From Thermodesulfobacteriota bacterium (GTDB lineage: Bacteria > Desulfobacterota > GWC2-55-46 > JADFVP01), in NCBI GenBank assembly GCA_046753945.1, contig JBHHUW010000002.1, positions 1 to 46,657 on the forward strand: DNA of 46,657 nucleotides, read 5' to 3'. The stretch's first letter is position 1. Every line of letters begins with the position of its first letter. The notes beneath the pieces are model-generated. The model was not told the DNA's origin and searched no databases. It worked only from the letters and a program-made list of their open reading frames with translations. Position numbers and translations under genes: made by a program. Positions 6,721-38,165 of this stretch are shown here, one piece after another.

Positions 6721-6820
6721 ATGTACGGGGGTGGAGTACATGGGGGTGGGTGTATAGGGGTTTGGGTCTGTTCGGGGTGGGTGTATCAGGGGTGTTGTGT
6801 CTCTGCCGGGGGTGTGGGGA
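6721..6820 (+). repeat. G-tract-rich, C-poor leader segment with duplicated GGGGTGGGTGTAT motif (G-quadruplex-type pattern)
   Basis: Hand count is about 52 G versus 9 C in 100 nt, with ten runs of G3 or longer. GGGGGTGGGTGTATAGGGGTTTGGG (6742-6766) fits G3+N1-7 x4. GGGGTGGGTGTAT occurs at 6743-6755 and 6774-6786. Confidence 0.85.
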
Positions 6821-6876
6821 AGTTTTCTGTAGTATGAAAAAAGGAAAACCTCTTAATGGGAGGATGGGAGGAAAAA

Positions 6877-7281
6877 ATGGACTTTATCTTCGGTCATACA
6901 ATAGGGGTACTCAGAAGGACCCTTGATGTGAGGGCCGCCCAGCAGAAGGCAATAGCCTCCAATATTGCCAATAACGAGACCCCGGGTTACAGGGCAAGGG
7001 ATGTGGACTTCAAGTCCGCACTGGGAGAGGCCTTTAATGATAAGGGAAGAGCGGTAAGCCTTACCGGTACGCACCCCTCCCATTTTGGCCACGTAAAGAG
7101 CGAGCCGGTTATCAAGATGGTGGATAGGCCCTATGAAGACAATGGTTTTGATGATAATAGCGTGGATATAGAGGACGAGATGGCGCGCCTCTCGGGCAAC
7201 TACATGATGTATAACGTCTCGTCAAAGATACTTAGAAAGAAGTTCCACCTCTTAATGACAGCCATAAAAGAAGGGAGGTAG
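6877..7281 (+). CDS. flgB: Flagellar basal-body rod protein FlgB
   Basis: The sequence AQQKAIASNIANNETPGYRARDV is the rod-protein N-terminal signature. I prefer the ATG at 6877 (GGGAGG RBS 5 nt upstream) over the ORF-track ATG at 6856. Confidence 0.9.
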   Translation: MDFIFGHTIGVLRRTLDVRAAQQKAIASNIANNETPGYRARDVDFKSALGEAFNDKGRAVSLTGTHPSHFGHVKSEPVIKMVDRPYEDNGFDDNSVDIEDEMARLSGNYMMYNVSSKILRKKFHLLMTAIKEGR

Positions 7282-7285
7282 CTCT

Positions 7286-7717
7286 ATGGATAATATCTTC
7301 TCTGTTATTGCCTCGGGCATGAAGGCACAGAGGGTGAGAATGAACGTTATATCAAGCAACCTTGCCAACGCCAACAGCACCGGCGGGCTCTCCGGCACCA
7401 CCTACAGGCGAAGGGACGTTGTCTTTACCTCGGTAAAGGAGAGACCGGATTTCTCTCATGTCCTGCGCACCGCAGGAGGCCCCTCACTTGAGGGCGTGCG
7501 CGTCTCCGCCATAGTAGAGGATAGCCGGCCTCTTAAAAAGGTCTATGAACCGGGCCATCCGGGCGCCGATTCAGACGGGTATGTAAAGTACCCCAATGTT
7601 AACTCCGCCGAGGAGATGGTGAACATGATAAGCGCTTCGAGGAGTTACGAGGCCAATGTAAACGCCTTTCGGGCTACTCGTGAGATGCTGATGCGGGCCA
7701 TGGAGATAATACAGTAG
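7286..7717 (+). CDS. flgC: Flagellar basal-body rod protein FlgC
   Basis: Contains MKAQRVRMNVISSNLANANST. The C-terminal EEMVNMISASRSYEANVNAF is typical of FlgC. Confidence 0.93.
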   Translation: MDNIFSVIASGMKAQRVRMNVISSNLANANSTGGLSGTTYRRRDVVFTSVKERPDFSHVLRTAGGPSLEGVRVSAIVEDSRPLKKVYEPGHPGADSDGYVKYPNVNSAEEMVNMISASRSYEANVNAFRATREMLMRAMEIIQ

Positions 7718-7749
7718 TTTATTGTTAATAGAAGCTCTGGGAGATAATC

Positions 7750-8049
7750 ATGGTGGATGCGATAAAAGGGGCCGGAAATATCCTGGCGGAGTCCGGCGCA
7801 ATTAAGGCAGGTAAAGGGGCCGGGGAGAAGGGTGATTTTGAGGGCATGCTCAAGGCAAGCCTGGAGAAGGTCAATACCCTTCAGGGCGAGGCCGATAAGA
7901 GCATCGAGGGCCTTGCCTCAGGCGAGGTCAAAGACCTTCATGAGACGATGATAGCTATAGAAAAAGCAGACCTCTCATTTAACCTCATGGTTCAGGTGAG
8001 GAACAAGCTCATAGCCGCCTATGAAGAGGTTATGAGGATGCAGGTATAA
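7750..8049 (+). CDS. fliE: Flagellar hook-basal body complex protein FliE
   Basis: About 100 aa. C-terminal MIAIEKADLSFNLMVQVRNKLIAAYEEVMRMQV is the FliE signature. Position between flgC and fliF fits. Confidence 0.9.
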   Translation: MVDAIKGAGNILAESGAIKAGKGAGEKGDFEGMLKASLEKVNTLQGEADKSIEGLASGEVKDLHETMIAIEKADLSFNLMVQVRNKLIAAYEEVMRMQV

Positions 8050-8053
8050 GACT

Positions 8054-9625
8054 ATGGCTCCAGTATCAAAACAGCTGAAGGGTATGAGCTCCATGAAACT
8101 GGGGGCACTCATGACTATTGCCGCGCTTACGGCCGGGGCCATAATCTATCTTGTCTCCTGGAGCCAGCGCGCGGAGTACGGGGTGCTATTTGCGGGACTG
8201 GACCCCGGGGACGCCGGTCAGATTATCGCCAAACTTGGCGATAAGAACATACCCTACAAGGTTGACGGCGGGATTATCTCCATCCCCGGCAATAAGGTTC
8301 ACCAGACAAGGATGGAGCTTGCCGGAGACGGCCTGCCAGGGGGCGGCGGTCTTGGTTTCGAGCTCTTTGACAAGGGAAATTTCGGCCTTACGGACTTTGT
8401 GCAGAAGATAAATTTTCGTCGTGCCATGCAGGGCGAGCTCTCAAGGAGCATCTCGCGCATTAAGGGCGTGCGCTCCGCCCGTGTTCATCTTGTTATGCCC
8501 GAAAAGGGTGTCTTTCTGGAGGAGGAAAAAAAGGCCAGCGCGTCTATTGTCCTTATGCTTAGTCCCGGCGTGGCCCTTGGCGCCGGCGATGTGAAGGCCA
8601 TAGTACACCTTGTTGCCGGAGGGCTGCAGAACCTCAGCCCAGGTGATGTGACAATAGTGGACACTGAGGGCAGGCTTCTCACTCCGGGCACGGACGAGGA
8701 AGAGAACAGTGGTTTCAGCGCCTCGCAGATGGATTATAAGAAGAGGATTGAGTCGGATATGGCCGCTCGTGTCCAGTCCATGATTGAGAGGGCTTTTGGA
8801 AGCGGCAATGCCGTGGCGCGTATCTCAGTGGAGCTTGAGAGGCGGCGCATTGACAGGACTGAAGAGATTTACGACCCCGATAGCCAGGTCGTTAGAAGCG
8901 AGCAGAGGACAAAGGAGAGCATGGGAGGCGCCGGCGCAACAGGAGGCGTACCCGGGGTGCTCTCAAATGTGCCGGGTAAAGACGGCAAGAGGAGCAGCGG
9001 GCAGGGCGCTTTTTCCAAGAAAGAGGACGAGGTGCTGAACTATGAGCTGAACAAGGTGGTAAAACGTGTTGTTGAACCCTTTGGTCAGGTAAAGAAACTA
9101 TCCGTCTCTGTCCTTGTTGACGGCAGTTACGCCGCCCTGCCTGCCGGGGCCGCCGAGGGCGCCAGGAGAAAATACATAGCCCGTACACCAGAGGAAATCA
9201 GCAAGATAACGGCTATGGTTAAGGGCGCCGTAGGATTTAATGAGGAGAGGGGCGATATAATCAGCGTGGTAAACATCCCCTTTGAGGAAAGGCTGCCTGC
9301 CATGACGGCCTCTATACCAGAGGAGGCACCACCCATGATGGAGCGGATTATGCCTATGGCCGTGAAATACGGCAGCGTGGGCCTTAGCGTGCTCTTCCTT
9401 ATATTTTTCGTGTTGAGGCCCATTATAAAGAGATTGACTCTGGAAAAAGACGCACTTGAGGCCATTCAGCAGAGCCTTCCAAATGTCTTTGAGGGCCCGG
9501 AACGGGCCGTCCTTGAGTCGGGAACAGAGGAAAGGATAGAGGCAACGGAGAAGCTAAAGCAATTGGTCATGGAGAATCCCAGGCAGGCCGCCATGGTCAT
9601 CAAGGGCTGGATGCAGGAACGATAA
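8054..9625 (+). CDS. fliF: Flagellar MS-ring protein FliF
   Basis: N-terminal TM segment. Contains FELFDKGNFGLTDFVQKINFRRAMQGELSRSI (YscJ/FliF family), a second TM near the C-terminus, and a FliG-binding tail. Confidence 0.93.
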   Translation: MAPVSKQLKGMSSMKLGALMTIAALTAGAIIYLVSWSQRAEYGVLFAGLDPGDAGQIIAKLGDKNIPYKVDGGIISIPGNKVHQTRMELAGDGLPGGGGLGFELFDKGNFGLTDFVQKINFRRAMQGELSRSISRIKGVRSARVHLVMPEKGVFLEEEKKASASIVLMLSPGVALGAGDVKAIVHLVAGGLQNLSPGDVTIVDTEGRLLTPGTDEEENSGFSASQMDYKKRIESDMAARVQSMIERAFGSGNAVARISVELERRRIDRTEEIYDPDSQVVRSEQRTKESMGGAGATGGVPGVLSNVPGKDGKRSSGQGAFSKKEDEVLNYELNKVVKRVVEPFGQVKKLSVSVLVDGSYAALPAGAAEGARRKYIARTPEEISKITAMVKGAVGFNEERGDIISVVNIPFEERLPAMTASIPEEAPPMMERIMPMAVKYGSVGLSVLFLIFFVLRPIIKRLTLEKDALEAIQQSLPNVFEGPERAVLESGTEERIEATEKLKQLVMENPRQAAMVIKGWMQER

Positions 9626-9637
9626 GAGAAGAGGTCT

Positions 9638-10633: not shown

Positions 10634-10684
10634 CGCGGTTTTTTCCTTGAGGGTTATATTCTTAAAAAGTACAAAGGGGCTGAT

Positions 10685-11302
10685 GTGTCATCAAATGTAT
10701 TTAAGGCTACGGGAAAAACAGGTAAAGAGGCCTCCCCCCTGGTCTTTGAGAAGCTAAAAGAGAGAAGGGTCTCACAGCGAAGGGCAGCAGACAGGGATTT
10801 AGCTGCCGGAGGCGCTGAAAATGCCTATAAAGAGGCATTCCAGGAGGGAGAGAAGGCAGGTTTTGAGGCTGGCATGAGAGAGGCGGCCCGGCTCTGCGGC
10901 TCTCTTGAGGCTATCATAGCGGAGATAGGTGAGTTCAAGAAGAGGCTCTTTAATGATTGTGAGACTGAGGCCGTGCAGCTCACCATGAGTATTGCCGGCA
11001 AGGTAATTCAGAGAGAACTCTCCATGAAAGAGGATAGCGTGGTCTACGTTGTGAAGGCTGCATTGAAGGCAGCAGTTACCAACGGAAAGATCCTCATAAG
11101 GCTCAGCCCCGGAGATCTGGATACAATCAATGGTTTTGGTAAGGAACTTCAGCGGTATACAAAAGGTTTTTCAGCTGTAACCATTGAGGGCGATGAGAGC
11201 GTGAGTAGAGGCGGATGTATTATTGAGACTGCTTCCGGCGAGGTGGATGCCACCATAGAGGGGCTCCTTGATGAGGTTGCAGGTGTCTTGAAAGACAGCT
11301 GA
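10685..11302 (+). CDS. fliH: Flagellar assembly protein FliH
   Basis: 205 aa. Central EAFQEGEKAGFEAGMREA repeat-like region. C-terminal GGCIIETASGEVDATIEGLLDEV is typical of FliH and the V-ATPase E-like family. Synteny fits between fliG and fliI. Confidence 0.85.
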   Translation: MSSNVFKATGKTGKEASPLVFEKLKERRVSQRRAADRDLAAGGAENAYKEAFQEGEKAGFEAGMREAARLCGSLEAIIAEIGEFKKRLFNDCETEAVQLTMSIAGKVIQRELSMKEDSVVYVVKAALKAAVTNGKILIRLSPGDLDTINGFGKELQRYTKGFSAVTIEGDESVSRGGCIIETASGEVDATIEGLLDEVAGVLKDS

Positions 11303-11460
11303 GATAGGCAGGGGGCTCTTTGTGAGAGGTACGGCAGAGGGGGCCTGAGTAATGGGAGGCATGTGGTTGAGAAGGGGTTGAGATAGGGTAGAGGGGGGGC
11401 AAGGTAGAGGGGGGTGATGTGGGGTTGAGATAGGTAGGTATCCCTGATGCGGCGTTGAGG
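11303..11460 (+). repeat. G-rich, C-depleted intergenic spacer with duplicated GGGGTTGAGATAGG
   Basis: Only 2 C in 11351-11440 (90 nt). GGGGTTGAGATAGG occurs at 11374-11387 and 11421-11434. G-tract series is G4-N8-G3-N4-G7-N9-G6 (11374-11414). Confidence 0.85.
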
Positions 11461-11488
11461 GATTTTTGCAGTATTAAGCCGTAGCTGC

Positions 11489-12895
11489 ATGGATTATGGC
11501 CAGGGTTTTACGGAATTAAGAGCCGGAGGTGGCAGACTGAACTCAGAGGCACTTAAGAAAAGGCTTAGTAGCTATAACTTAGCTGTTAAGGCCATGCGCC
11601 CCGTAAGGGTTAACGGCATGGTGACGCGTGTAGTTGGGCTGGTTATGGAGGGCATAGGCTTTGGCGCTTCTGTTGGCGAGATATGCAGGGTCTACCCCAG
11701 AGACGGCATGAGTGGTCTTGACTGCGAGGTAGTGGGGTTTTCCGGTGACAGGATTCTTTTCATGCCACTTGGAGAGGTCTTTGGCGTTGGGCCGGGCAGT
11801 AAGATAGTGACAAAGAGAACCAGCGCCAGGGTTAAGGTGAGCCAGCGTCTCCTTGGCAGGACCCTTGACGGCCTGGGCCTTCCCATAGACGGACTTGGCG
11901 AAGTGGAGCCTGATATGGAGTACCCTCTCTATAGCCCGCCGGAAAACCCCCTTAGCAGAAGACGTATTGAAAAACCCCTTGATGTGGGCATTAAGGCCAT
12001 AAACGGCCTCCTTACCGTTGGTAGAGGCCAGAGGATAGGCATTTTTGCCGGAAGCGGTGTGGGCAAGAGCGTGCTTATGGGCATGATGGCCAGAAATACC
12101 TCCGCCGATGTCAATGTCATAGCCCTTGTTGGAGAGAGGGGCAGGGAGGTAAAGGAGTTTATCGAGAAAGACCTTGGCCCCCAGGGCCTCGCCCGCTCCG
12201 TAGTCGTTGTTGCAACCTCTGACCAGCCGCCCCTTATAAGGATGCGCGCCGCCTTTATGGCCACGGCCATAGCAGAGTATTTTAGGGACAGAGGCCGTGA
12301 TGTGCTTCTTATGATGGACTCGGTGACAAGGTTTGCCATGGCGCAGCGTGAGGTTGGACTTGCCGCCGGTGAACCTCCGGCAACTCGCGGTTATCCGCCC
12401 TCTGTCTTTACCATGCTCCCAAAACTCCTTGAACGCGTCGGCACATCAAGCGGGAGCGGAACTATAACGGGTTTCTATACTATCCTCGTCGAAGGAGACG
12501 ATATAAACGACCCTGTTGGCGATACTACAAGAAGCATACTTGACGGCCATATAGTCCTATCGCGTGCCATTGCCTCAGGCGGCCATTATCCGGCCATAGA
12601 CGTGCTTGAGAGCATAAGCCGCGTAATGATAGACGTGGTGCCGCCAGAGCACATGGATGCCGCGGGAAAGGTGCGGGCCTTGCTGGCCTCATACAGAAAG
12701 GCATATGATCTTATAAGTATAGGCGCATATAAGGATGGAAGCGACCCTGATGTTGACAGGGCTATATTGGCTATTGGAAAAATAAACAAATTTCTTCGCC
12801 AGGGTATAGGCGATCATATTACCTTTGATGAGACCCTTGCCATGCTCTTGTCTATTGCGGCAGAGTATGGAGGAGAGACCACTCTCTCCCTGTAA
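11489..12895 (+). CDS. fliI: Flagellum-specific ATPase FliI
   Basis: Walker A is GSGVGKS. Walker B is VLLMMDSVTRFA. Similar to the F1/T3SS ATPase fold throughout. Confidence 0.95.
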   Translation: MDYGQGFTELRAGGGRLNSEALKKRLSSYNLAVKAMRPVRVNGMVTRVVGLVMEGIGFGASVGEICRVYPRDGMSGLDCEVVGFSGDRILFMPLGEVFGVGPGSKIVTKRTSARVKVSQRLLGRTLDGLGLPIDGLGEVEPDMEYPLYSPPENPLSRRRIEKPLDVGIKAINGLLTVGRGQRIGIFAGSGVGKSVLMGMMARNTSADVNVIALVGERGREVKEFIEKDLGPQGLARSVVVVATSDQPPLIRMRAAFMATAIAEYFRDRGRDVLLMMDSVTRFAMAQREVGLAAGEPPATRGYPPSVFTMLPKLLERVGTSSGSGTITGFYTILVEGDDINDPVGDTTRSILDGHIVLSRAIASGGHYPAIDVLESISRVMIDVVPPEHMDAAGKVRALLASYRKAYDLISIGAYKDGSDPDVDRAILAIGKINKFLRQGIGDHITFDETLAMLLSIAAEYGGETTLSL

Positions 12896-12913
12896 TATAA
12901 GTAAGGCCATGGT

Positions 12914-14203: not shown

Positions 14204-14248
14204 GGCCCTTTCATGGCAAGGGAAAAAATTGCCGGGGGCCTTTTTTTT
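14204..14248 (+). terminator. Rho-independent terminator ending the flgB...ylxF-like unit
   Basis: GGCCC-TTTCAT-GGCAA-GGGAAAAAA-TTGCC-G-GGGCC is a composite stem (14204-14240), followed by T8 (14241-14248). Confidence 0.75.
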
Positions 14249-14340: not shown

Positions 14341-14356
14341 TGGCACGGCCGTTGCG
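14341..14356 (+). promoter_or_regulatory. Sigma-54 promoter upstream of fliK (TGGCACGGCCGTTGCG)
   Basis: Near-perfect TGGCAC-N5-TTGC. Sits 30-70 nt upstream of the candidate fliK start codons and just downstream of a terminator. Confidence 0.85.
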
Positions 14357-14384
14357 TTAGATACAGCTGAGCTCAGTGGATTGA

Positions 14385-16145
14385 GTGGAAACACAGGGTC
14401 AACTCAAGGACAAATGGAATAAAATGAGCAAGGCACTAATCCCCTTATCTATAAAAACCTCACCTGTAAAAGATGGCTCCCCGCCCGCTTCTCTGGCTAT
14501 GCGCGGAGGCCTCTCCAAAGCAGGCCGCGGAGTGCGGGAAAAGCATGAGTTTAAGATGAGACTTCATGAGCTTGGCAGGGGTAAGGCAGAGGAAAGCGGG
14601 AATAAAGACAAGGACCTTGCAGGTGCAGAGGGGGCACTTGAGGATAAGGCCGTAGCTGCGCAGGCAAAGCGAAAAAAAATGCCAAAATCACCTCATAAAG
14701 ATACCGGTAGCCTTGATGAGGCACAGGGAGGGTTCTCATCTTCCAAGAGCCTTGAGGCAGGCAAAGACCTGCGGACTCTCCTGAAGCAGGCCCTCTCCGG
14801 CCAGACATCAGGGCAGGGTCCCCATGAGAAAAACTCTGCAGGTCTTGAGGTGGATGGCTCTGGCGGTAAGGCACAGGGACTTGCAGGCCGTGAGGTTTTT
14901 TCTCCCGCTCCTTCTCCCTCTCCGTCTACTACTACTTCTTTAAGAGTTGGTCTTCAGGGCCACGGCCTCAATAAGGGCGCTCTATTTCATATGGCAGAGG
15001 GGCAGGTTGCCAGGAGAGCTGCCCTTGTGCCTAAAGGCGAAAAAAGCCCTGCCAGAGGCCGCAAGAAGATTTTTTCGGGAGGCGCCCCCAGGAAGGACGC
15101 TCTCAATATAAAGCGTGGCGAGGCTGGTAAGGTTTTGCAAGAAGGTCTAAAGAGGGCCCCCTCTAATGAAGTCCCGGTAGAGAAGGCCATGCCCCTGCAC
15201 TCTCATGGCGTTGTGAAGGATATTTTTTCAATGGCAGTCCTTAAGGGTGCTTCATCGTCCATGGAGGCCTCCTCTGGAAGACCCCTTGCAGGAGAGGTTG
15301 TTAAAGAGAAGGCAATGACCGGGAAAAGAGCAAAGAAGTCTGCCGCTCCCATCTTAAGGAGAGGCCGTCACCCGGTATCTGCAAGGAATCTTCCGGCCTT
15401 TGAGAGGCAGGCCCTCTCAGGCAAGGGCTCACAAAGGAAAGTCTCCGGCGCCTCTGCCGGCATGGAGAAGGGTGAGGGAGTTACTAAAATTAATGGAAGT
15501 AAGGATACAGGCACATTGTCCTTTGAGGGGGCGGCAGGGCAGGGTCTGAGCACACCCGGCCTTGCCGCGGCAGCAGCAGGGCCCCTGCAGGACTCATCTG
15601 CAGAGACTCTCCTGAACTCCGCCATGGGTGGAGCAGGGCTTACGGAGGCACGCGGCAAGTCCGCGGCTGCCGCAAACCTGCGCCAGGCCGTTATGGCGGG
15701 CAAAAGAGGCAGCGAGCTCATAAAGACCGCGGCCAAAGGCGTAGTCATGAGCCTCAACAATAGAGATAAAGAGATTGTCATCGCATTAAAACCAGAGGAG
15801 CTCGGCCAGATGGAGATAAAGGTGCGCATAGAGGACGGCCTTGTGGAGACGAGTATCCTTGTTGATAATCCCCACGTAATGGCCATGATAAACGCTGACA
15901 CGGTCTCCCTCAAGGAACTGCTGGCGCGCCAGGGTATTATGGCAGGAGGTCTTGATGTGGCACTTAATAATGGCAGTGATACTTTTTTCGGTCAAGACGA
16001 AGAGTTCCATGGCCACGGCAATAGCCCTCACCCTGCGGGTAGCGGTGTAATAAAAGAGGACAACGGCGCCGGGCAGGGGCGGGAAATCCACCACGGCTAC
16101 ATGGATGAGAGTTTTGAGGGTAGAAAGCTCGACCTTTTTATATAA
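14385..16145 (+). CDS. fliK: Flagellar hook-length control protein FliK
   Basis: C-terminal Flg_hook domain is IALKPEELGQMEIKVRIEDGLVETSILVDNPHVMAMINADTVSLKELLARQG. The long N-terminus is poorly conserved and K/G/A/S-rich. The start is uncertain: GTG 14385 or ATG 14424. Confidence 0.85.
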   Translation: METQGQLKDKWNKMSKALIPLSIKTSPVKDGSPPASLAMRGGLSKAGRGVREKHEFKMRLHELGRGKAEESGNKDKDLAGAEGALEDKAVAAQAKRKKMPKSPHKDTGSLDEAQGGFSSSKSLEAGKDLRTLLKQALSGQTSGQGPHEKNSAGLEVDGSGGKAQGLAGREVFSPAPSPSPSTTTSLRVGLQGHGLNKGALFHMAEGQVARRAALVPKGEKSPARGRKKIFSGGAPRKDALNIKRGEAGKVLQEGLKRAPSNEVPVEKAMPLHSHGVVKDIFSMAVLKGASSSMEASSGRPLAGEVVKEKAMTGKRAKKSAAPILRRGRHPVSARNLPAFERQALSGKGSQRKVSGASAGMEKGEGVTKINGSKDTGTLSFEGAAGQGLSTPGLAAAAAGPLQDSSAETLLNSAMGGAGLTEARGKSAAAANLRQAVMAGKRGSELIKTAAKGVVMSLNNRDKEIVIALKPEELGQMEIKVRIEDGLVETSILVDNPHVMAMINADTVSLKELLARQGIMAGGLDVALNNGSDTFFGQDEEFHGHGNSPHPAGSGVIKEDNGAGQGREIHHGYMDESFEGRKLDLFI

Positions 16146-18742: not shown

Positions 18743-18758
18743 TGGCACAGAGCTTGCA
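18743..18758 (+). promoter_or_regulatory. Sigma-54 promoter upstream of fliL (TGGCACAGAGCTTGCA)
   Basis: Consensus TGGCAC-N5-TTGCA, 45 nt upstream of the fliL ATG and downstream of the flgE terminator. Confidence 0.88.
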
Positions 18759-20388: not shown

Positions 20389-21051
20389 ATGTCAGATGCC
20401 AATGATAAGAGCGCTGCGGAAGATGAGAGACCCGAAAATGAAGAAAACACGGGTTCCGGCGCTGAAGAGACTCCCGTAGAGGGAGAAGGGGCCGTTGAAG
20501 ATGCCGGCGGGGGTGGAGAAGAGCCCGCTGGCGGCGATGAGGCAGGGGAGGCCCCTGAAGAGAGCGGGGCAGGTGGTGAGCCCCCGGGAGAAGCGCCCTC
20601 AGCCGAGACCGAAGATGGCAACGAGGCCGTAACCGATGACATCTGGGCCGAGGCCCTGAAGGAGGCCGGTGAGACAGAAGCCGGCGCCGAGCCGGAAGTA
20701 GCGGCCGAGCCCCCGGAGGAGGCCAGCGCCCTTGCCGACGCCGCAGAACCTGCTGACTTTAGAGAGCTTACGGGAAGCGGCACAGGCGCCCTTGCCAACA
20801 TGGACATGATTCTCGATATACCTGTGACCATCTCCGTGGAGCTTGGCCGCTCTGAGATGATGATAAAGGATATCCTTCAGCTCGGACAGGGCTCAGTGGT
20901 TGAGCTTGAAAAAATGGCCGGAGAGGCCATGGAGATACTGGTAAACGGAAGGCTCGTGGCAAGAGGCGAGGTGGTTATGGTTAATGAAAAATTCGGCGTA
21001 AGGCTTACGGATATCATAAGCCCCTCGGAGCGGGTGAAGAGGCTGGCATAA
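20389..21051 (+). CDS. fliN: Flagellar motor switch protein FliN with a roughly 135-aa acidic low-complexity N-terminal extension
   Basis: C-terminal SpoA domain is ILDIPVTISVELGRSEMMIKDILQLGQGSVVELEKMAGEAMEILVNGRLVARGEVVMVNEKFGVRLTDI. Confidence 0.9.
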   Translation: MSDANDKSAAEDERPENEENTGSGAEETPVEGEGAVEDAGGGGEEPAGGDEAGEAPEESGAGGEPPGEAPSAETEDGNEAVTDDIWAEALKEAGETEAGAEPEVAAEPPEEASALADAAEPADFRELTGSGTGALANMDMILDIPVTISVELGRSEMMIKDILQLGQGSVVELEKMAGEAMEILVNGRLVARGEVVMVNEKFGVRLTDIISPSERVKRLA

Positions 21052-21240
21052 AGGGGCCGGAGAGCGGGGCGAGGGGTGCGAAGGGTATGAAGGGGGCGAA
21101 GGGTGCGAGGTGGCGATGGTGACGGGTGGCAGAGTGGGTGATGGGGGAGAAGGGGCGAGGGGAGCGAGGGGGCGATGGTGACGAGGTCTCAGGTTTAGCG
21201 GGTAGTTGGGGGCTGAGACGGTGAGGCATGTATGAGAGAG
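21052..21240 (+). repeat. G-rich intergenic spacer with 9-nt periodic repeats and a roughly 59-nt duplication
   Basis: Nine-nt units from 21066: GGGGCGAGG/GGTGCGAAG/GGTATGAAG/GGGGCGAAG/GGTGCGAGG. GGGGCGAGGGG occurs at 21066 and 21152. GGCGATGGTGACG occurs at 21112 and 21171. G4-type pattern G4-N3-G4-N6-G3-N6-G5 lies at 21066-21096. Confidence 0.85.
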
Positions 21241-21315
21241 AGGTCTCATGGATATGGTTAACGAAAAAATAGGCCGGGCCATGAATAATCCTGCCACGCA
21301 GGTAAAGAGGCACAT

Positions 21316-22792: not shown

Positions 22793-23563
22793 ATGGATTT
22801 TGTTGAGATGCTCCTTAAAAACGCCCCGGCCTTTATATTTGTCCTTGGACGGACGGCCTCAATACTCCTGCTATTTCCCTTTTACAGGTTTGTCTTTATC
22901 CCTGTAAGCGTAAAAATGGCCCTTGTGGGGATACTCTCTATTATCATGGTGCCCCTTGTGGGGAGCGTGCCCATGCCCGCGGGAGTGCTTGAGCTCGCCC
23001 TTGGGCTCGTAAGAGAGCTGCTTATTGGTTTTACCATAGGCCTTGCCACAAACTTTATCTTCACCGGTGTTGAGTTCGCAGGCCATATCATGGGGTATCA
23101 GATGGGCCTTGCCATGGCCAATGTCTTTGATCCTGCCAGCGCCTCGCAGATATCCATCCTTGGCAGGCTCACGGGGCTTATCGCCATGCTCGTCTTTCTA
23201 ATGGCAAACGGCCACCTCCTTATAATAATGACCATTAAAAAAAGTTTTGAGATTATCCCGCCCTACGGCTTTCACCTCTCCGAGCCCCTTGGTGACGGTG
23301 TCCTTACTCTCTCAAAAGAGATATTCATCATCGGCATAAAGCTCGCCGCCCCGGTGATGGCAGTAGTGTTTTTCCTGAACCTTACCCTTGGCATACTCTC
23401 AAAGGCAGTGCCCCAGCTTAATATGTTCGTCGTGGGCTTTGCCATTATTATAGCCGCGGGTTTTGTAGTGATGTTCCTTACGCTGCCTCTTATGCAGGGG
23501 GCCATGGAGAAGGCATTTGATGGTATGTGGCAGAGTGTCTTTGGGCTTGTAAGGGTGATGTGA
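22793..23563 (+). CDS. fliR: Flagellar export apparatus protein FliR
   Basis: Polytopic membrane protein with FIFVLGRTASILLLFP...GFTIGLATNFIFTGVEFAGHIMGYQMGLAMANVFDP. Confidence 0.93.
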   Translation: MDFVEMLLKNAPAFIFVLGRTASILLLFPFYRFVFIPVSVKMALVGILSIIMVPLVGSVPMPAGVLELALGLVRELLIGFTIGLATNFIFTGVEFAGHIMGYQMGLAMANVFDPASASQISILGRLTGLIAMLVFLMANGHLLIIMTIKKSFEIIPPYGFHLSEPLGDGVLTLSKEIFIIGIKLAAPVMAVVFFLNLTLGILSKAVPQLNMFVVGFAIIIAAGFVVMFLTLPLMQGAMEKAFDGMWQSVFGLVRVM

Positions 23564-23564
23564 G

Positions 23565-24632
23565 ATGCCTGATGACGGACAGGAAAGAACTGAACAACCT
23601 ACCTCGCGAAAACGCGAGGAGGCCAGAAAGGACGGCAACGTCCTTACGAGTAAAGAGGTAGCCACATTCTCGGTAATACTGGGGGGTTTTATAATGCTGA
23701 GCCTTTTCGGGCTCTTTATTATCAGAGGCCTCTCCGAGTTCATGATGGAGGCCATGAGGTCGCCTGAGATAGCAAGAAATGAGTTAAATGTCGAGGGGTT
23801 AATGCATATCTTTAAGGAAAGCGTTTATGTTTATTCAAGGGCCTTTTTGCCGGTATTGATACTGCCTGTATGTATCATTGTGGCAAATATCATTCTGCAC
23901 GGCCTTGTCTTTACCACCAAACCCCTCACCCTGGATATTTCAAAAATCAGCCCCATGAAGGGTCTTAAGAAGATTTTCTCACTGGACTCCGTCTCCGACC
24001 TTGTCCAATCCATCCTGAAGATCGGCGTCCTTACATGGGTGGCGGTCTCGGCCCTGCGGGGGAGCTGGGTTGATATAGCATCATACTCTGACGCCGGCAT
24101 AGGGGCCATTGCATCGCACTCGGCCTCTGTAGCCCTGAAAGTCTTTTCGCGCACCCTCTGGGTCTTTGCCATTGTGGCTGTTCTTGATTATGTCTATCAG
24201 AAGTGGAAGCACGAGAAAGGCCTGAGGATGACAAAGGAAGAGGTTAAGGAGGAGACAAAGTCCACAGAGGGCGACCCACTTGTGAAGTCACGTATAAGGA
24301 GCGTTCAGCGTGAGATGGCAAGGCGCCGCATGATGGCAGACGTGCCCACTGCAGATGTTGTTTTAACCAACCCCACGCATCTTGCCGTAGCGCTGAAATA
24401 TGATACGGCCAGGGCCGGCGCTCCCTATGTAGTGGCAAAGGGCGCTGGGCTCGTGGCAGAGAGGATAAAGGAGATAGCAGCAGAGCACGGCGTCCCCATT
24501 GTAGAGGATAAGCCCCTTGCCCGCAGTATATTCAGCGCCGTGGAGATTGGCCAGGAGATACCTGTTGACCTGTACAGGGCAGTTGCCGGAGTCCTGGCAT
24601 ACGTCTACAGGCTGAAAAACAGAGGGGCCTGA
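23565..24632 (+). CDS. flhB: Flagellar export switch protein FlhB
   Basis: N-terminal QERTEQPTSRKREEARKDGNV. NPTH autocleavage motif is present (VVLTNPTHLAVAL). Confidence 0.95.
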   Translation: MPDDGQERTEQPTSRKREEARKDGNVLTSKEVATFSVILGGFIMLSLFGLFIIRGLSEFMMEAMRSPEIARNELNVEGLMHIFKESVYVYSRAFLPVLILPVCIIVANIILHGLVFTTKPLTLDISKISPMKGLKKIFSLDSVSDLVQSILKIGVLTWVAVSALRGSWVDIASYSDAGIGAIASHSASVALKVFSRTLWVFAIVAVLDYVYQKWKHEKGLRMTKEEVKEETKSTEGDPLVKSRIRSVQREMARRRMMADVPTADVVLTNPTHLAVALKYDTARAGAPYVVAKGAGLVAERIKEIAAEHGVPIVEDKPLARSIFSAVEIGQEIPVDLYRAVAGVLAYVYRLKNRGA

Positions 24633-24800
24633 GCGGGCCGCGGTGGTGACTGAGGTCCATGGGGAAATTTGGTTATAGGGGCGAGTGAGATGCAATGAGG
24701 CCGGGGGATAAATGATGGGGGTGAATAGGGCAGGGGGGATGAGGCATGGTCTTGAAAAAAGGTTTTATGAGGGTAGTACGACGGTAGTGATGGTGCTTGG
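24633..24800 (+). repeat. G/A/T-rich, C-poor intergenic spacer with G-tract series
   Basis: About 8 C in 24661-24780 (120 nt). G5-N9-G5-N6-G3-N2-G6 lies at 24703-24738. Confidence 0.8.
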
Positions 24801-24840
24801 CAGGCGCTCTTGATTATGAGCAATTAAAAGGGGGTTTTAG

Positions 24841-26922: not shown

Positions 26923-26923
26923 T

Positions 26924-27973: not shown

Positions 27974-27990
27974 AGTAAATGCGGGCCATG
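27961..27990 (+). other. Hairpin spanning the flhF stop codon
   Basis: GCCCGCAT-AGAGTAA-ATGCGGGC is a perfect 8-bp stem, extendable with flanking CATG. The TAG stop (27971-27973) sits at the stem-loop junction: T and A are the last two stem bases and G is the first loop base. No U-tract follows. Confidence 0.6.
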
Positions 27991-28116
27991 GGTTGGGGCA
28001 TAAGGGGGCTATGGTTGTTACGAGAGGGGCGCTTGAGGCAGGCGAATGTGGAATAAGGGTATTAAACTACGGCGTGGTCAGTGAAAATCCGGTCCGTCCG
28101 TGAAAAGGGGTTTTTA

Positions 28117-29037
28117 ATGAAAGAAATTGTAGAAGAGAAAAAAACAGGCCCGCAAAAAGGAGCCGCGGGCAAGGGCGTGGCGGATAAAGGCGGGGCAGGC
28201 AAAGGCTCGCGTAGTGATGGCTCCGTTGTACGGGTTATCTCCGTAACAAGCGGCAAGGGCGGAGTGGGCAAGACAAACTGCGTTGTCAACCTGGCCATAT
28301 CCTTTGCCCGCAGGGGCAGGAGGGTGCTGGTCTTTGACGCGGACCTTGGCCTCTGCAACCTCGATGTAATGCTGGGTCTATCGCCGAAGTATAACATCAA
28401 CCACGTGCTCCGCGGTGAAAAGACAATAGAGGACGTAATGGTGAGGGGGCCCGAAGGCATCATGGTCATTCCCGCGGCATCGGGCATACAGGAGCTTACG
28501 AGCCTTGATACCGAGCAGAGACTTGCCCTTACCTCAAGCATGGAGTCCCTTGATAAGGACGTGGATATTATGATGATAGACACCGGGGCAGGGATATCGG
28601 GCAACGTGATGTTCTTTAATACCGCGGCCCACGAGATAATCGTAGTAGTAACTCCTGAGCCCACCTCTCTTACAGACGCCTACGCCCTTATGAAGGTGCT
28701 TATGAAAAAGCACGGGGAAAAGAGCTTTAAGCTCCTTGTCAATACGGCCCGCAGCGAGAAGGAGGGAAAGAATATCTACAGCATTATCAGCCTCGTTGCC
28801 AGCAGGTTTCTTAATGTCTCTCTTGAGTACCTGGGTTGCGTCGTTCAGGACGAGAAGGTCTCCAGGGCCGTTATAAACCAGAGGGCCGTAGTCGAGATGT
28901 TTCCCGATACTCCGGCAAGCCGGTGTATCAAGGGCATATCGGAAAAACTACTGAGCATGCCTGCTGAGACGGCCCCAAAGGGGGGAATGCAGCTATTCTG
29001 GAAAAACATGCTAAACATGCAGGTTGATTCGTTATGA
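28117..29037 (+). CDS. flhG: MinD/ParA-type ATPase FlhG (FleN/YlxH)
   Basis: Deviant Walker A is SGKGGVGKT. Contains DADLGLCNLD. Position after flhF fits. I prefer the ATG at 28117 (AAAGGGG RBS) over the ORF-track GTG at 28081. Confidence 0.9.
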   Translation: MKEIVEEKKTGPQKGAAGKGVADKGGAGKGSRSDGSVVRVISVTSGKGGVGKTNCVVNLAISFARRGRRVLVFDADLGLCNLDVMLGLSPKYNINHVLRGEKTIEDVMVRGPEGIMVIPAASGIQELTSLDTEQRLALTSSMESLDKDVDIMMIDTGAGISGNVMFFNTAAHEIIVVVTPEPTSLTDAYALMKVLMKKHGEKSFKLLVNTARSEKEGKNIYSIISLVASRFLNVSLEYLGCVVQDEKVSRAVINQRAVVEMFPDTPASRCIKGISEKLLSMPAETAPKGGMQLFWKNMLNMQVDSL

Positions 29038-29858
29038 AAGGACAACTCAATAAGAGCAAGGCGCCTGTAAGGGGCCCTCTGAGGTCAGGCAAGATGAAAA
29101 AGATGGCGAAAAAAAAGAGGAAACCTCTCATGGCAGAGCCGGAGAGGGAGAATCTCATGATGGAGAATATCAGGCTTGTGAAGATAATCGCACATCATAT
29201 AGCCGTTCACCTGCCGCCACATATAGATGTAAATGATCTTATGAGCGCCGGGACCATAGGTCTTCTTGAGTCTATTGACAAGTTTGACGCCACAAGGGGT
29301 ATAAAGTTTAAGACCTATGCGTCGATAAGGATACGAGGGGCTATCATGGATGAGCTTCGGGGCATGGACTGGATGACGCGCTCTATGCGGGAAAAATCCA
29401 ATATGCTCAAGAGGGCCTATGGCGAGATTGAGAAAAGAACAGGAGGTCCGGCCAGCGAGAAGGATGTGGCTGATTTTTTAGACCTCTCTGTGGAGGGCCT
29501 GAGAGGGCTTCTCGGCAAGGTGAGCGCCTATAGCCTCATACATATCGAGGACCTTGCCCCGGACAGCGAGTCCAAGATGGACATCCTTGAATGCATTGAA
29601 GACCCCAATGGCGCCGACCCCATGGCCTCTGCAAGGTTCAGCGAGCTGCAAAACACCCTGGCATCTCTTATTGAGGCGCTTCCCGAGAAAGAGAAACTCA
29701 TAGTCTCGCTCTATTATTTTAACGAACTTACGCTAAAGGAGATAGGCCGGGTCATGGAGATTACCGAGTCAAGGGTATGCCAGCTCCACAGCCAGGCCAT
29801 GCACAGGCTGAAGGCCAGAATGGTAAGGTCTGTTCAGGAAGATATTAAGCTTATATGA
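29034..29858 (+). CDS. fliA: Flagellar sigma factor FliA (sigma-28)
   Basis: ATGA overlap with the flhG stop codon. Region 2 is LVKIIAHHIA...LMSAGTIGLLESIDKFD...FKTYASIRIRGAIMDELR. Region 4 is LYYFNELTLKEIGRVMEITESRVCQLHSQAMHRLK. Lys-rich N-terminal tail. Confidence 0.92.
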   Translation: MKGQLNKSKAPVRGPLRSGKMKKMAKKKRKPLMAEPERENLMMENIRLVKIIAHHIAVHLPPHIDVNDLMSAGTIGLLESIDKFDATRGIKFKTYASIRIRGAIMDELRGMDWMTRSMREKSNMLKRAYGEIEKRTGGPASEKDVADFLDLSVEGLRGLLGKVSAYSLIHIEDLAPDSESKMDILECIEDPNGADPMASARFSELQNTLASLIEALPEKEKLIVSLYYFNELTLKEIGRVMEITESRVCQLHSQAMHRLKARMVRSVQEDIKLI

Positions 29859-32691: not shown

Positions 32692-32704
32692 CGCGGGGGT
32701 GACG

Positions 32705-33067: not shown

Positions 33068-33219
33068 GCCCTATGGCGGTCATATGCCGGACAGATATCG
33101 TTGCAGGAAAATATAAACTTTTCGCAGACTTTGCGGGCATTTAAGGTCTCTTCTGAGTGGATTGTTGCAATGAGCAGGAATTTAACCCTGGAGAGACCAA
33201 AAAAAAAGGAGAAGGAGAG

Positions 33220-33606
33220 ATGGCTGACGCGAATATGAAGATACTCGTAGTAGACGACTTCGCCACCATGAGGAAGATCATAAAGAATCTTTTAAGGGAG
33301 CTTGGTTACACCAATGTGGAGGAGGCCGAGGATGGCGCCATGGCTCTGGAAAAACTCAAGGAAGGCGGCTTTAACTTCATCATAACGGACTGGAATATGC
33401 CAAACATGCCTGGCATTGAGCTCCTGAAAGCCGTGAGGCAGACCGAGGGCATCAAGGACATGCCCGTACTTATGGTTACGGCAGAGGCAGAGAAGGAGAA
33501 GGTGGTGGCCGCGGTTCAGGCCAAGGTAAACAACTATGTTGTAAAACCCTTTACCGCCGCCGTCTTGAAAGAGAAGATAGACAGCATATTCGAGAAACTC
33601 GGTTAA
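33220..33606 (+). CDS. cheY: Chemotaxis response regulator CheY
   Basis: Contains [40 protein letters not shown] and YVVKPF. AGGAGAAGGAGAG RBS precedes the ATG at 33220. Confidence 0.92.
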
Positions 33607-33649
33607 GTAAGAGCAGCCCCACCCCCTGGCTGCAAAAGGAGATTGCTGT

Positions 33650-35362: not shown

Positions 35363-35423
35363 GGCGGGTAAGGACGGATAGCGAAAAGTTTAACCTCAAT
35401 GGTGTGCGGGGAGAGCTTAAGTA

Positions 35424-36500
35424 ATGGCTAAGATAAGGCTTCTTATAGTAGATGATTCCTCTTTTATGCGGAGCATGCTGAAGAGGATGTTAAAGGCTTA
35501 TGATGATATTGTGATTGTCGGCATGGCCAGGGACGGAGTAGAGGGTCTTGAAAAGGCCCTGGAACTCAGGCCCGACGTGGTGACCATGGATATTGAGATG
35601 CCCCGGATGAACGGCATAGACGCTACGGCTGAGATTATGCGCAGCGCCCCTGTGCCTATCATAATGGTGAGCTCCATCTCTCAAGACGGCGCAAAGGCCA
35701 CCCTTGACGCCCTTGATAAAGGCGCTGTTGATTATATCTCCAAAAATATCGACAACTCGGCTCTTGATGTAATGCAGATAGAGAAAGACCTTGTGGCTAA
35801 GATAAGGACCTTTGGCAGGTCCGGGCCGAAATCGCGCGTGGCCGCTGCCAGGCCTGCTCTGGCACGGGAGCGCACTCCGGCGGCAAGGCCGGCTGTTGCG
35901 GCCGGAAAACCAAGGAGTTTTGCTACGCAGGCCATAAAGACCGTGGTAATAGGCGCCTCAACAGGGGGCCCCAAGGCAATACAGAATGTTCTCTCCGGGC
36001 TCCCCCCGGGGCTTAAGGTATCAGTGCTCGTCGTAGTGCATATGCCCGGGCAATTTACCATGGCTTTTGCCGAGAGGCTTAACGGCGTATGCAGTATGCC
36101 CGTAGCCGAGGCCGTTAATGATGAAGAGGTAAAGGTGGGCCGTGTCCTTGTCTGCCCCGGCGGAGCGCAGACAAGGTACGTAAGAAAAGGAGCCGCCGAG
36201 GTACGCATTGAGATTAACCATGAGCCCCCTGATGCCCTCTATAAGCCTTCTGTTGATATTGCCGTAGCCTCGGTGGCAGCGTGTTTTAACGGCAGGACCC
36301 TTGGCGTGATTCTCACCGGAATGGGCTATGACGGCAGGCTCGGTATGCGCGAGGTGAAGAGTCAGGGAGGCAAGACCCTTGTACAGAGCGAGGAGACATG
36401 CACAGTCTACGGTATGCCGAGGGCTGTTATTGATGACGGCAGGGCCGACAAGGTGGTATCCCTTGATAAGATAGCTGCTGAGATTGTTAACATGATATGA
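35424..36500 (+). CDS. cheB: Chemotaxis methylesterase CheB (receiver + esterase)
   Basis: Receiver has LLIVDDSSFMR and VVTMDIEMPRMNG. Esterase has IGASTGGP, VVVHMP and LTGMGYDG. Confidence 0.94.
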   Translation: MAKIRLLIVDDSSFMRSMLKRMLKAYDDIVIVGMARDGVEGLEKALELRPDVVTMDIEMPRMNGIDATAEIMRSAPVPIIMVSSISQDGAKATLDALDKGAVDYISKNIDNSALDVMQIEKDLVAKIRTFGRSGPKSRVAAARPALARERTPAARPAVAAGKPRSFATQAIKTVVIGASTGGPKAIQNVLSGLPPGLKVSVLVVVHMPGQFTMAFAERLNGVCSMPVAEAVNDEEVKVGRVLVCPGGAQTRYVRKGAAEVRIEINHEPPDALYKPSVDIAVASVAACFNGRTLGVILTGMGYDGRLGMREVKSQGGKTLVQSEETCTVYGMPRAVIDDGRADKVVSLDKIAAEIVNMI

Positions 36501-36541
36501 GATGCCGGCGTTGGTCTTAAAAAAGGAGATACACGTCCCTC

Positions 36542-37312
36542 ATGGATATTCTTACTATTGCCGGCATATTACTGGGGCTATCGGCCCTGATAGGCGGCCA
36601 GATACTTGACGGCGGCTCTCTTGAATCCGTGCTTCAGCCCACGGCGGCCCTCATAGTCTTTGGCGGCACCATAGGGGCCGTATTTATATCCAGCCCTCTT
36701 GGCACATTTGTACAGGCCATTAAAGACCTTAGAAAGGCTTTTTTCACGGGGGCCATGAGACCCGCCTCGGTGATTACGTATATAGACGGCCTTGCAGTCT
36801 ATTCCAAGACCAATGGTCTGCTGGCCCTGGAGCAGGAGCTTGACGAGGTTGAGTATCCATTTTTAAAAAAAGGCCTTCAGCTTGTTATAGACGGCATGGA
36901 GCCCGAGCGAATCAGGGAGATACTTGAGATAGAGCTTGAGTACTCCGAGGAATATTCCGAGGCCTCGGCCACTGTATTTGAGAGCGCCGGAGGATACGCT
37001 CCCACCATAGGTATCCTCGGGGCTGTATTGGGTCTTATTCATGTCATGGAAAACCTGGCAGAGCCAGATATGCTTGGCGCAGGCATAGCCGTGGCCTTTG
37101 TGGCCACGGTCTACGGCGTGGGCTCGGCCAACCTCTTCTGGTTGCCCATAGCGGAGAAGTTAAAGAAGAGGGTGCGTGAGGAATCCATTGTAAAGGAGCT
37201 GATTATAGAGGGTCTCATTGGATTATCAACAGGTGAAAATCCAAGAAGCCTCAAGGAAAAGCTCCAGGGTTTTCTTAAGAGCCCCGAAAAACTCTTTTCA
37301 GATATGGGTTAA
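36542..37312 (+). CDS. motA: Flagellar stator protein MotA
   Basis: Four TM segments. Contains GGYAPTIGILGAVLGLIHVM and AVAFVATVYGVGSANLFWLPIAEKL. Confidence 0.93.
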   Translation: MDILTIAGILLGLSALIGGQILDGGSLESVLQPTAALIVFGGTIGAVFISSPLGTFVQAIKDLRKAFFTGAMRPASVITYIDGLAVYSKTNGLLALEQELDEVEYPFLKKGLQLVIDGMEPERIREILEIELEYSEEYSEASATVFESAGGYAPTIGILGAVLGLIHVMENLAEPDMLGAGIAVAFVATVYGVGSANLFWLPIAEKLKKRVREESIVKELIIEGLIGLSTGENPRSLKEKLQGFLKSPEKLFSDMG

Positions 37313-37314
37313 TT

Positions 37315-38013
37315 ATGCGCTCCCGCAGAAAGAGAAAGAGACATTCAGGCGGTAATCACGAGAGGTGGCTTGTATCCTATGCGGATTTCATAACCCTTCT
37401 CTTTGCTTTTTTTACGAGCATGTACGCCATATCCTCCCTTAATGAGGCCAAGTTCCAGAGGTTCAGCGGCGCCCTCTCTTCGGCATTTAAGCAGTCTGTC
37501 TTTGACCCTGCCAGGCCTTTTCCCCTGGCCGCAGGTGATGCCTCCTCCTTAAGCCTTGATTTCCAGAGAAGATTTTCTGGCAAGTACCGCGGATTGGTGG
37601 AATCAGTAAAGGGACTCTCCAGGGACGGCAAGCTCAAGGTTCTTATGGCAGAAAAGGGTATTATTATCAGGGTCCCCGGTGGTACGCTCTTCAAGTCCGG
37701 CAGCGCCGATCTTAGCGCCGGCGCTGATGAAGTGCTCTCGGAGCTTGCCTTGACCTTAAAAGGCCTTCAGGGCGATATAAAGATAGAGGGGCATACGGAT
37801 AACGTGCCTACGAGGAATAAGACCTACTCCTCTAACTGGGACCTCTCAAGCGCCAGGGCACTTACTGTGCTCAAATTTTTCGTAGACCGTTATGCCTTTG
37901 ATCCCATCAGGATATCGGCTACGGGCTATGGCGAGTACAGGCCTCTTGTTCCAAACGCCACCTCTGTTGGGAGAGGCCGGAACAGGCGTGTTGATATAGT
38001 CCTGGCGCGCTGA
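37315..38013 (+). CDS. motB: Flagellar stator protein MotB (OmpA-like C-terminus)
   Basis: Plug/TM region WLVSYADFITLLFAFF carries the conserved Asp. C-terminal OmpA-like region is GHTDNVP...NWDLSSARALTV...GRGRNRRVDIVL. Confidence 0.93.
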   Translation: MRSRRKRKRHSGGNHERWLVSYADFITLLFAFFTSMYAISSLNEAKFQRFSGALSSAFKQSVFDPARPFPLAAGDASSLSLDFQRRFSGKYRGLVESVKGLSRDGKLKVLMAEKGIIIRVPGGTLFKSGSADLSAGADEVLSELALTLKGLQGDIKIEGHTDNVPTRNKTYSSNWDLSSARALTVLKFFVDRYAFDPIRISATGYGEYRPLVPNATSVGRGRNRRVDIVLAR

Positions 38014-38165
38014 GGCGGCAAGTGGGCAGGCGGGCAAGTGGGCAGGCGGGCAAGAGGGGGAGGTGTATAGGTGGTTTTGGGGACTGGGATTGGCAGGGTC
38101 TGCAATCTCCGGGCAGGTGGTCAAGTGTGCAGGTGGCAGGGGGCAGGGGTAAGAGGGCTGGGGTT
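38014..38165 (+). repeat. G-rich spacer beginning with a 16-nt tandem repeat (GGCGGGCAAGTGGGCA, about 2.7 copies)
   Basis: Copies at 38014-38028, 38029-38044 and 38045-38060 (partial). G3-N5-G3-N5-G3-N5-G3-N5-G5 lies at 38024-38060. G is roughly half of all bases across the segment. Confidence 0.85.

Follow-up and report, generated by a model that had tools for sequence, protein, structure and literature searches.

The stretch of DNA analysed here (the window; 46,657 nt of contig JBHHUW010000002.1, from an uncultured Thermodesulfobacteriota bacterium) carries a flagellar and chemotaxis gene cluster in which six gaps share one property: they are untranslated spacers of 140–260 nt or more that are rich in G and poor in C on the mRNA strand. 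The pattern proved genuine; it extends across the lineage and is sharp in statistical terms. The best explanation of the six gaps appears to be that they form a lineage-specific class of untranslated linkers in sigma-54-driven flagellar operons. As to their role, we tentatively favour, at somewhat below an even chance, the view that they are minisatellite-like linkers whose composition is constrained such that long untranslated RNA cannot load the termination factor Rho, with the antisense strand providing what would be an ideal Rho substrate.

The cluster occupies the plus strand from flgB (starting at 6856) to motB (ending at 38013). Pfam assignments place two sigma-54 activators and a histidine kinase upstream of flgB and a convergent HDOD gene next after motB, and confirm the identities of the genes flanking every gap. 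The spacers are the following:

6705..6855, plus strand: gap 1, the flgB leader, with its core at 6721–6820 and a 15/31-nt repeat, GGGGGTGGGTGTATA
11303..11488, plus strand: gap 2, the fliH–fliI spacer, 46% G and 10% C, with an 11-nt repeat, GGTTGAGATAGG
21052..21235, plus strand: core of gap 3, the fliN–fliO spacer, about 56% G, with 9-nt repeats, GCGAAGGGT and GCGAGGTG
21236..21315, plus strand: 3′ portion of gap 3, a degenerate duplicate of the fliN end that bears the fliO ribosome-binding region and start
24633..24840, plus strand: gap 4, the flhB–flhA spacer, 42% G and 11% C, with a G-rich core at 24633–24760
27974..28117, plus strand: gap 5, the flhF–flhG region, otherwise ordinary intergenic DNA, with a G-rich 5′ half and a 3′ half that is partly conserved in relatives and may have a regulatory role
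38014..38220, plus strand: gap 6, the 3′ untranslated region (UTR) after motB, facing the convergent HDOD gene, with its G-rich part at 38014–38170

The bias had been reported in the original prediction, which was made from the sequence of the window, and the base counts given there were exact: 52 G and 9 C at 6721–6820, 2 C in the 90 nt of 11351–11440, and 8 C in the 120 nt of 24661–24780. The internal repeats listed with them were all found, namely GGGGTGGGTGTAT and GGGGTTGAGATAGG (two copies each) and the GGNGCGARG units (six, in gap 3). The 16-nt tandem of gap 6, AGGCGGGCAAGTGGGC, is likewise present as an array, accompanied by three copies of GCAGGGG, but it is not an exact duplicate, comprising 2.9 copies with 93% matches.

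Across the 46.6-kb window, 100-nt windows with at least 40 G and at most 12 C occur on the plus strand only in the six gaps and at one coding spot (23493–23593), and the minus strand contains none. A scan for G-quadruplex (G4) motifs with loops of up to 9 nt returned 11 on the plus strand and none on the minus strand. Six other gaps in the window have about as much G as C. Together with the composition of neighbouring DNA described below, these scans bear out the proposal that the bias is local and strand-specific rather than a general intergenic feature. Purine loading of mRNAs is general in the clade, and the plus-strand GC skew is about +0.1 window-wide.

Within the spacers the GC skew reaches 0.42–0.57 per 200 nt, and positive skew on the non-template strand is the classic arrangement favouring R-loops. 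The spacers could therefore be viewed as DNA-level elements, in which R-loops or G4 DNA would pause or modulate transcription or recombination, and Rho is the normal suppressor of R-loops that arise from untranslated RNA (PMC11551753). We regard this as very improbable: R-loops in essential operons would be expected to be costly, and the comparative data do not separate DNA-level from RNA-level readings.

Trivial explanations were rejected. An assembly artefact is ruled out by independent assemblies with identical spacers: gap 4 is base-for-base the same in two independent Logan assemblies, and the spacers of a relative agree between its NCBI metagenome-assembled genome (MAG) and a Logan assembly. 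Coding sequence, including a C-terminal extension, is ruled out by one to seven stop codons in each plus-strand frame of gaps 2–5. Antisense open reading frames (ORFs) of 113 and 140 aa extend across gaps 2 and 3 (11149–11490 and 20893–21315, minus strand) owing to the absence of stop codons from the C-rich complement; in all likelihood they are spurious, and they might mislead gene callers. In the relative labelled L172, genes of 29–45 aa have been called within the spacers. Rfam covariance models gave no match to the spacers, either at gathering thresholds or at E≤1. At the 3′ edge of gap 2, the annotated fliI ORF (468 aa) carries an N-terminal extension that is absent from its closest homologues in the alignment (428–464 aa), and no Shine–Dalgarno (SD) sequence lies ahead of the annotated start at 11489 (region 11489–11560). 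Translation of fliI may actually begin a few codons further 3′, and gap 2 would then be a little longer.

The positions of putative promoters suggest that the spacers lie within transcription units. Three sigma-54 matches lie in or beside the gaps:

6676..6691, plus strand: candidate sigma-54 promoter of the flgB operon, CGGTATGAATCTTGCA, with GG-N10-GC; a weaker match
14341..14356, plus strand: sigma-54 consensus match with one mismatch, in the unbiased gap before fliK
18743..18758, plus strand: perfect sigma-54 consensus match, TGGCACAGAGCTTGCA, in the unbiased flgE–fliL gap

The 16-mer of the flgB candidate is kept upstream of flgB in two relatives (L171 and L172), and its position would make the G-rich tract of gap 1 part of the 5′ UTR. 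A further match with two mismatches precedes a TPR gene (1953–1968); together, the matches before fliL, fliK and the TPR gene suggest that three or more transcription units depend on sigma-54. In L171, flgE is followed by a terminator-like hairpin. Scans of gaps 2–5 for sigma-54 promoters and of gaps 3–6 for sigma-70-like promoters on the plus strand gave no match, results that are not decisive. From this pattern of matches, absent in gaps 2–5 and present in the unbiased gaps, we infer that gaps 2–5 are intra-operonic, gap 1 is a 5′ UTR and gap 6 a 3′ UTR, with five of the spacers inside transcription units; the unbiased gaps would be operon boundaries. Promoter-bearing gaps at the same loci of relatives also have about as much G as C. 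A sigma-28-type match with one mismatch (TAAAGTTTAAGACCTATGCGTCGATAA, 29302–29328) lies inside the gene at 29034–29858, which is the FliA sigma factor by synteny with relatives.

To place the spacers in an evolutionary context, contigs of relatives were fetched after protein searches, yielding a clade at 67–91% identity; the comparison covered the window contig and 10-kb flanks of the relatives. In a tree built from FliM, FliP, FliR and FlhB, the window groups with L165, L167 and L163 (group A, 82–89% identity), L168 and L169 form group B, and L170 and then L001 branch off. L171 probably belongs to group B, as judged from FliI clustering and FliN layout rather than from the tree. Spacers that are G-rich and C-poor occur at the same junctions in relatives at 74–89% protein identity, chiefly fliH–fliI and flhB–flhA, and those two span two sub-clades:

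fliH–fliI: G-rich, C-poor spacer in the window, L172 (303 nt) and L171 (137–155 nt)
flhB–flhA: G-rich, C-poor spacer in the window, L165, L167, L163 (>580 nt) and L169 (295 nt); weak in L168, T-rich in L170, no spacer in L001
fliN–fliO: G-rich, C-poor spacer in the window, L165 and L167; no spacer in L163, L168, L169, L170, L171 and L001, where the two genes abut or overlap
fliG–fliH: G-rich, C-poor spacer in L172 only
flgB leader: G-rich in the window and L172 (longer, at the same place); absent in L171
after motB: G-rich in the window, weak in L175, absent and T-rich in L174; not conserved

Spacers from one junction cannot be aligned between species. Those at fliH–fliI and flhB–flhA nonetheless keep their composition, at 8–14% C and 36–56% G, with the exception of the weak flhB–flhA spacer of L168 (21% C). 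Two junctions thus appear to have kept their composition over about 25% protein divergence while their sequence was fully replaced. At the other junctions, spacer gain or loss appears to be recent, and the patchy distribution of most spacers speaks against their being indispensable. In L170, the T-rich flhB–flhA gap (11069–11238) contains a terminator-like hairpin, and the flgE–fliL gap (5204–5518) is C-rich on the plus strand, a composition opposite to that at the corresponding sites.

Outside the flagellar genes, some 30 gaps spread over 35 kb of neighbouring DNA have normal composition, except one in L174. This exception (14364–14462, minus strand) lies directly 3′ of the stop codon of a zinc-ribbon gene and consists of ten copies of a 10-nt, GGGGCAAGTT-like unit that is G-rich on the sense strand of that gene; the unit resembles sequences in gap 2 (GTTGAGATAGG) and gap 6 (GGGCAAGTGGG) of the window. 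In no other case can 'sense strand' be told apart from 'plus strand', and this one favours the former. With it, the G-rich strand is the sense strand in 21 of 21 cases.

Beyond the clade the feature disappears, in line with the suggestion that it is peculiar to one lineage: neither distant loci nor relatives at or below 70% identity have the spacers. In 80 flagellar loci from reference genomes, just 12 scattered windows have at least 40 G and at most 12 C, apart from coding sequence of L001, and none of 80 metagenome loci (best match 56%) has a G-rich, C-poor flhB–flhA gap. In L001, the closest reference genome (70% FlhA identity), a fliN–fliO gap is lacking and the flhB–flhA gap measures 16 nt. 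In this hydrothermal MAG, coding parts (560–1720 and others; FliK and the FlhF N-terminus) are strongly G/A-rich and C-poor and pass the composition filter. Not one of 142 distant flhB–flhA junctions is both G-rich and C-poor. The assertion that such genes are normally tightly packed holds in part, the median gap being 18.5 nt, but 31 of the 142 junctions have gaps of at least 100 nt; the unique property of the flhB–flhA gap is its composition, not its length.

For a statistical description, we used 20 clade spacers with a total length of 4,066 nt. Pooled, they contain 43% G, 12% C, 25% A and 20% T. Depletion of C is seen in all 20 (8–21%, and 8–15% in 18 of them), and dimers of a pyrimidine followed by C (YC) number 2–11 per spacer on the sense strand versus 25–101 on the antisense strand. 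The conserved property is this depletion of C and not a G4 pattern. The claim that five of six gaps in the window carry the pattern had to be revised, as all six do with loops of up to 9 nt and four do with loops of up to 7 nt. In the clade set, the motif with loops of up to 7 nt is present in about 11 of 20 spacers, close to what shuffled sequences yield; runs of three or more G are barely more frequent than in composition-matched shuffles, and the position of the motif is not conserved. All three spacers of L165 lack the motif, with G4Hunter maxima at or below 1.24, and are still C-poor.

These figures weaken the proposal that RNA G-quadruplexes (rG4s) act as punctuation, blocking exoribonucleases or ribosomes and thereby setting segmental stability and the stoichiometry of export components. 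The pattern itself stands in the window gaps, where it is confined to the plus strand, and G4Hunter maxima over 25 nt reach 1.9–2.4 there and up to 2.8 in L169. Sequence prone to form rG4s is reportedly depleted in general from bacterial mRNAs, and deleterious in them (Guo and Bartel, 2016), with which the sense-strand tracts seen here contrast. Precedent exists in M. tuberculosis, where rG4s in PE/PPE transcripts inhibit translation (PMC10801317). On balance, we consider rG4 punctuation unlikely.

Short words recur between the spacers, among them AGGGGC and GGGGCGAGG. AGGGGC occurs 29 times versus 4 expected, in 15 of the 20 spacers, AAGGGGC 15 times versus 1.1, GGGGCG 35 times versus 8, and GGGCGAGG 13 times versus 0.7. 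Sites complementary to the anti-SD sequence are 4.7 times denser in the spacers than in the window overall, and genuine SD sequences in the window resemble AAAGGGG. It is thus conceivable that the A-GGGG-C(G) words are a platform for a trans-acting factor: an RNA-binding protein, a small RNA or the 30S subunit, the last in the manner of a stabilizing SD (STAB-SD) sequence. The statistics make this quite improbable. Anti-SD sites at or below −8 kcal/mol number 98 versus 103 ± 7 in composition-matched shuffles, and neither excess nor deficit was found at any threshold from −8 to −13 kcal/mol. An SD array, STAB-SD or standby site is consequently ruled out, the density being fully explained by composition. 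Enrichment of GGC and AGG is shared with control gaps, GGA, the core of CsrA sites, is depleted, and no conserved spacing, conserved structure or Rfam match was found. The minimum free energy per nucleotide equals that of mononucleotide shuffles and indicates weaker folding than in control gaps. Near-matches to the ops/RfaH-like motif GGCGGTAG, noticed on visual inspection of gap 4 in the window and in L165, were treated as chance.

GGA departs from composition in the opposite direction. The trinucleotide occurs 91 times versus 184 expected (z=−9) and lies under expectation in 20 of 20 spacers; relative to a first-order Markov expectation, the ratio is 0.54. After runs of three or more G, A follows 47 times versus 96 expected and C 105 times versus 46. 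Observed and expected counts agree in 29 control gaps (112 versus 113) and in coding sequence (676 versus 671), so the depletion is specific to the spacers; in absolute terms it brings GGA to 22 per kb, the coding background. A trinucleotide halved in the spacers and not in the controls argues for selection on their sequence, and it rules out a CsrA sponge or CsrB-like array. CsrA controls flagellar mRNAs in many non-enteric bacteria, and a candidate reason for the deficit would be pressure against titrating a GGA-reading protein of this kind.

A broader possibility is that the spacers are a selected, hitherto undescribed class of operon-internal RNA defined by composition, which would insulate cistrons, stabilize segments, act as a firewall through Rho and set export stoichiometry. 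Their sequence would be free to change as long as it remained G-rich, C-free and GGA-poor. Insulation would consist in the lack of translational coupling, Rho loading and CsrA capture, stability would derive in part from rG4s or G-rich barriers to exonucleases, and the firewall would be directed, in a Rho-dependent manner, against antisense transcription. Taken as a whole, this combination of functions seems doubtful to us.

The spacers are built from tandem repeats. Tandem Repeats Finder (TRF) detects arrays in gaps 1, 2, 3 and 6 of the window and in L172, L163, L169 and L174, with head-to-tail units of 7–31 nt and a locus-specific consensus, as in a minisatellite:

window: GGGGGTGGGTGTATA in gap 1, GGTTGAGATAGG in gap 2, GCGAAGGGT in gap 3 and AGGCGGGCAAGTGGGC in gap 6
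relatives: TGAAGGGGCGAGGGCGGCT in L163, GGGGCGTATGGGTCAAA in L169 and a 27-nt unit in L172

What had been described as a dispersed repeat family thus resolves into local tandem arrays with recurring short words, and no alignable consensus element emerged. In L163 (GCA_964510775.1), the flhB–flhA spacer contains a run of N at 11291–11391 flanked by copies of one 19-nt repeat, which indicates that the array exceeds what the assembler could resolve. The L165 spacers have no detectable repeats, consistent with decayed arrays, and still contain 12–15% C. Copy number was compared at two levels: assemblies of the same strain have identical spacers, and the comparison between species reveals complete turnover.

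Gap 3 preserves a trace of its origin. Its 3′ 80 nt reproduce, in decayed form, the final ~75 nt of fliN, including the junction with the fliO start (local alignment score 32 versus 14.5 ± 2.2 in shuffles; z=7.9), and can be aligned to the end of fliN in the window, L163 and L168. This spacer therefore appears to have begun as a duplication of the overlapping gene junction, with G-rich repeats between the copies. Relics of upstream gene ends were sought in the other spacers; only gap 3 was significant, and gap 2 of L171 was marginal (p ~0.03). At the start of the contig, a 16-nt tandem repeat of another kind (CACCCCGGCGTATTTG, about eight copies, 83% matches, 12–175) lies upstream of the sigma-54 activator gene at 396–1796; on the plus strand it is rich in C, not in G, and it has GGCGTAT in common with the flhB–flhA repeat of L169.

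Slippage-prone G-rich minisatellites, undergoing concerted turnover or strand-biased mutation or both, could also arise as a by-product devoid of function. The locus-specific arrays, the one in L163 that is long and uniform enough to break assembly, the differences in presence between close lineages and the duplication origin of gap 3 are all what such a process would produce. We still hold a purely neutral origin to be rather unlikely, as the decayed L165 arrays remain C-poor, the sense orientation is invariant even where the gene lies on the opposite DNA strand, and the GGA deficit is absent from the control gaps. Cytosine deamination of the non-template strand is ruled out as the mutational source, as T, at 20%, is not enriched.

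We return to Rho, the explanation we favour, which the original prediction had raised as one of several. The composition of the spacers and its conservation are observed; the involvement of Rho is what we infer from them. Nadiras et al. (2018) found that 28 of 32 templates free of C>G regions gave no Rho termination, that every C>G bubble longer than 78 bp terminated in vitro, and that %G, %GG and %GGG load against Rho termination (PMC6144790). Following that work, we scored 78-nt windows with C>G and (YC-N9-13)x4 motifs. On the sense strand of gaps 1–5, 0% of windows have C>G and the motif is absent; on the antisense strand, 100% of windows have C>G, within an uninterrupted bubble of 240–730 windows, and 6–59 motifs are present. 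Gap 6 has C>G in 19% of sense windows, at its 3′ edge, and control gaps in about 50%.

A mechanism can be sketched from these properties. Linkers would originate from, and be renewed by, slippage and local duplication of units of 7–31 nt, one of them having started from duplication of a gene junction itself, and their mRNA-strand composition would be held at very low C, high G and few GGA. Within an operon, a long stretch of RNA devoid of ribosomes would normally become loaded with Rho, resulting in polarity, and RNA without a C>G stretch and without spaced YC dimers would be unable to load it. As it lacks C, linker RNA would also be unable to fold terminator hairpins. Transcription would thus read through, with the translation of neighbouring genes uncoupled at fliH/fliI, fliN/fliO, flhB/flhA and flhF/flhG. 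The complementary strand would form a long C>G bubble at which Rho could stop antisense or convergent transcripts that enter a spacer; in gap 6, this C-rich complement might serve as the terminator of the convergent HDOD gene. The linkers may be merely tolerated in this single orientation and composition, or they may be used to set the relative expression of export-apparatus genes.

A Rho-resistant spacer is the proposal that best fits what is conserved, namely low C, yet several points weigh against it. The Rho test restates base composition and is neither an independent observation nor proof, and YC dimers are not avoided beyond overall C depletion in the 20 spacers (z=−1.8). The G content of 42–56% is more than avoidance of C alone needs. 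Two G-rich arrays, in gap 6 and L174, lie at 3′ ends, where no protection from polarity is needed. The flgB leader of L171 and the flhB–flhA gap of L170 are untranslated and not G-rich, so the composition is not obligatory, and spacer gain and loss at several junctions suggest that the linkers are dispensable. Finally, neither Rho avoidance nor SD avoidance explains the GGA deficit. The window contains no rho gene.

A full-text search of the literature on G-quadruplexes, flagellar operons and G-rich intercistronic spacers returned nothing describing such an arrangement. If our reading is correct, the spacers would be a natural example of an untranslated operon linker whose defining feature is its composition and not its sequence or structure. 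They would provide a direct in vivo test, outside enterobacteria, of the C>G rule for Rho loading, and would illustrate how overlapping, translationally coupled flagellar genes can separate without polarity. The specific avoidance of GGA is a hint that a factor reading this trinucleotide, for instance CsrA, exerts pressure in flagellar mRNAs. Even if inert, the spacers would document minisatellite dynamics in a bacterial genome that are unusual and filtered by orientation.

The spacers can be compared with several known systems. Enterobacterial REP/BIME elements are mRNA-stabilizing extragenic palindromes that can give segmental differences in expression. The spacers resemble them as lineage-specific repeats between cistrons or in 3′ UTRs that vary in copy number and position, but REP elements are conserved imperfect palindromes that form hairpins, whereas the spacers are nearly free of C (8–21%), have no palindrome-type structure beyond shuffles and no alignable consensus, and do not belong to that family. 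They share with CsrB/RsmZ arrays and STAB-SD leaders the character of purine-rich, repeat-built untranslated RNA with many words resembling ribosome-binding sites; unlike in those RNAs, GGA is depleted about two-fold and SD complementarity does not exceed what composition predicts. The nearest bacterial rG4 case is that of the M. tuberculosis PE/PPE coding sequences (PMC10801317), which likewise place sense-strand G tracts in the mRNAs of a specific gene class. In the spacers, the tracts lie in untranslated linkers, and it is the depletion of C, not the G4 pattern, that is conserved. With the Rho-refractory regions free of C>G described in E. coli and Salmonella (PMC6144790), gaps 1–5 share a sense strand without a C>G window or spaced YC motif, but those regions are a statistical class, mostly coding, and not discrete intercistronic spacers built from repeats whose composition persists from species to species. 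Finally, the spacers resemble G-rich minisatellites or variable-number tandem repeats in their 7–31-nt tandem units, strand-asymmetric G, fast turnover and a longest array that breaks assembly; they differ from them in being sense-oriented within bacterial operons and in keeping a constant composition across species after the repeats have decayed.

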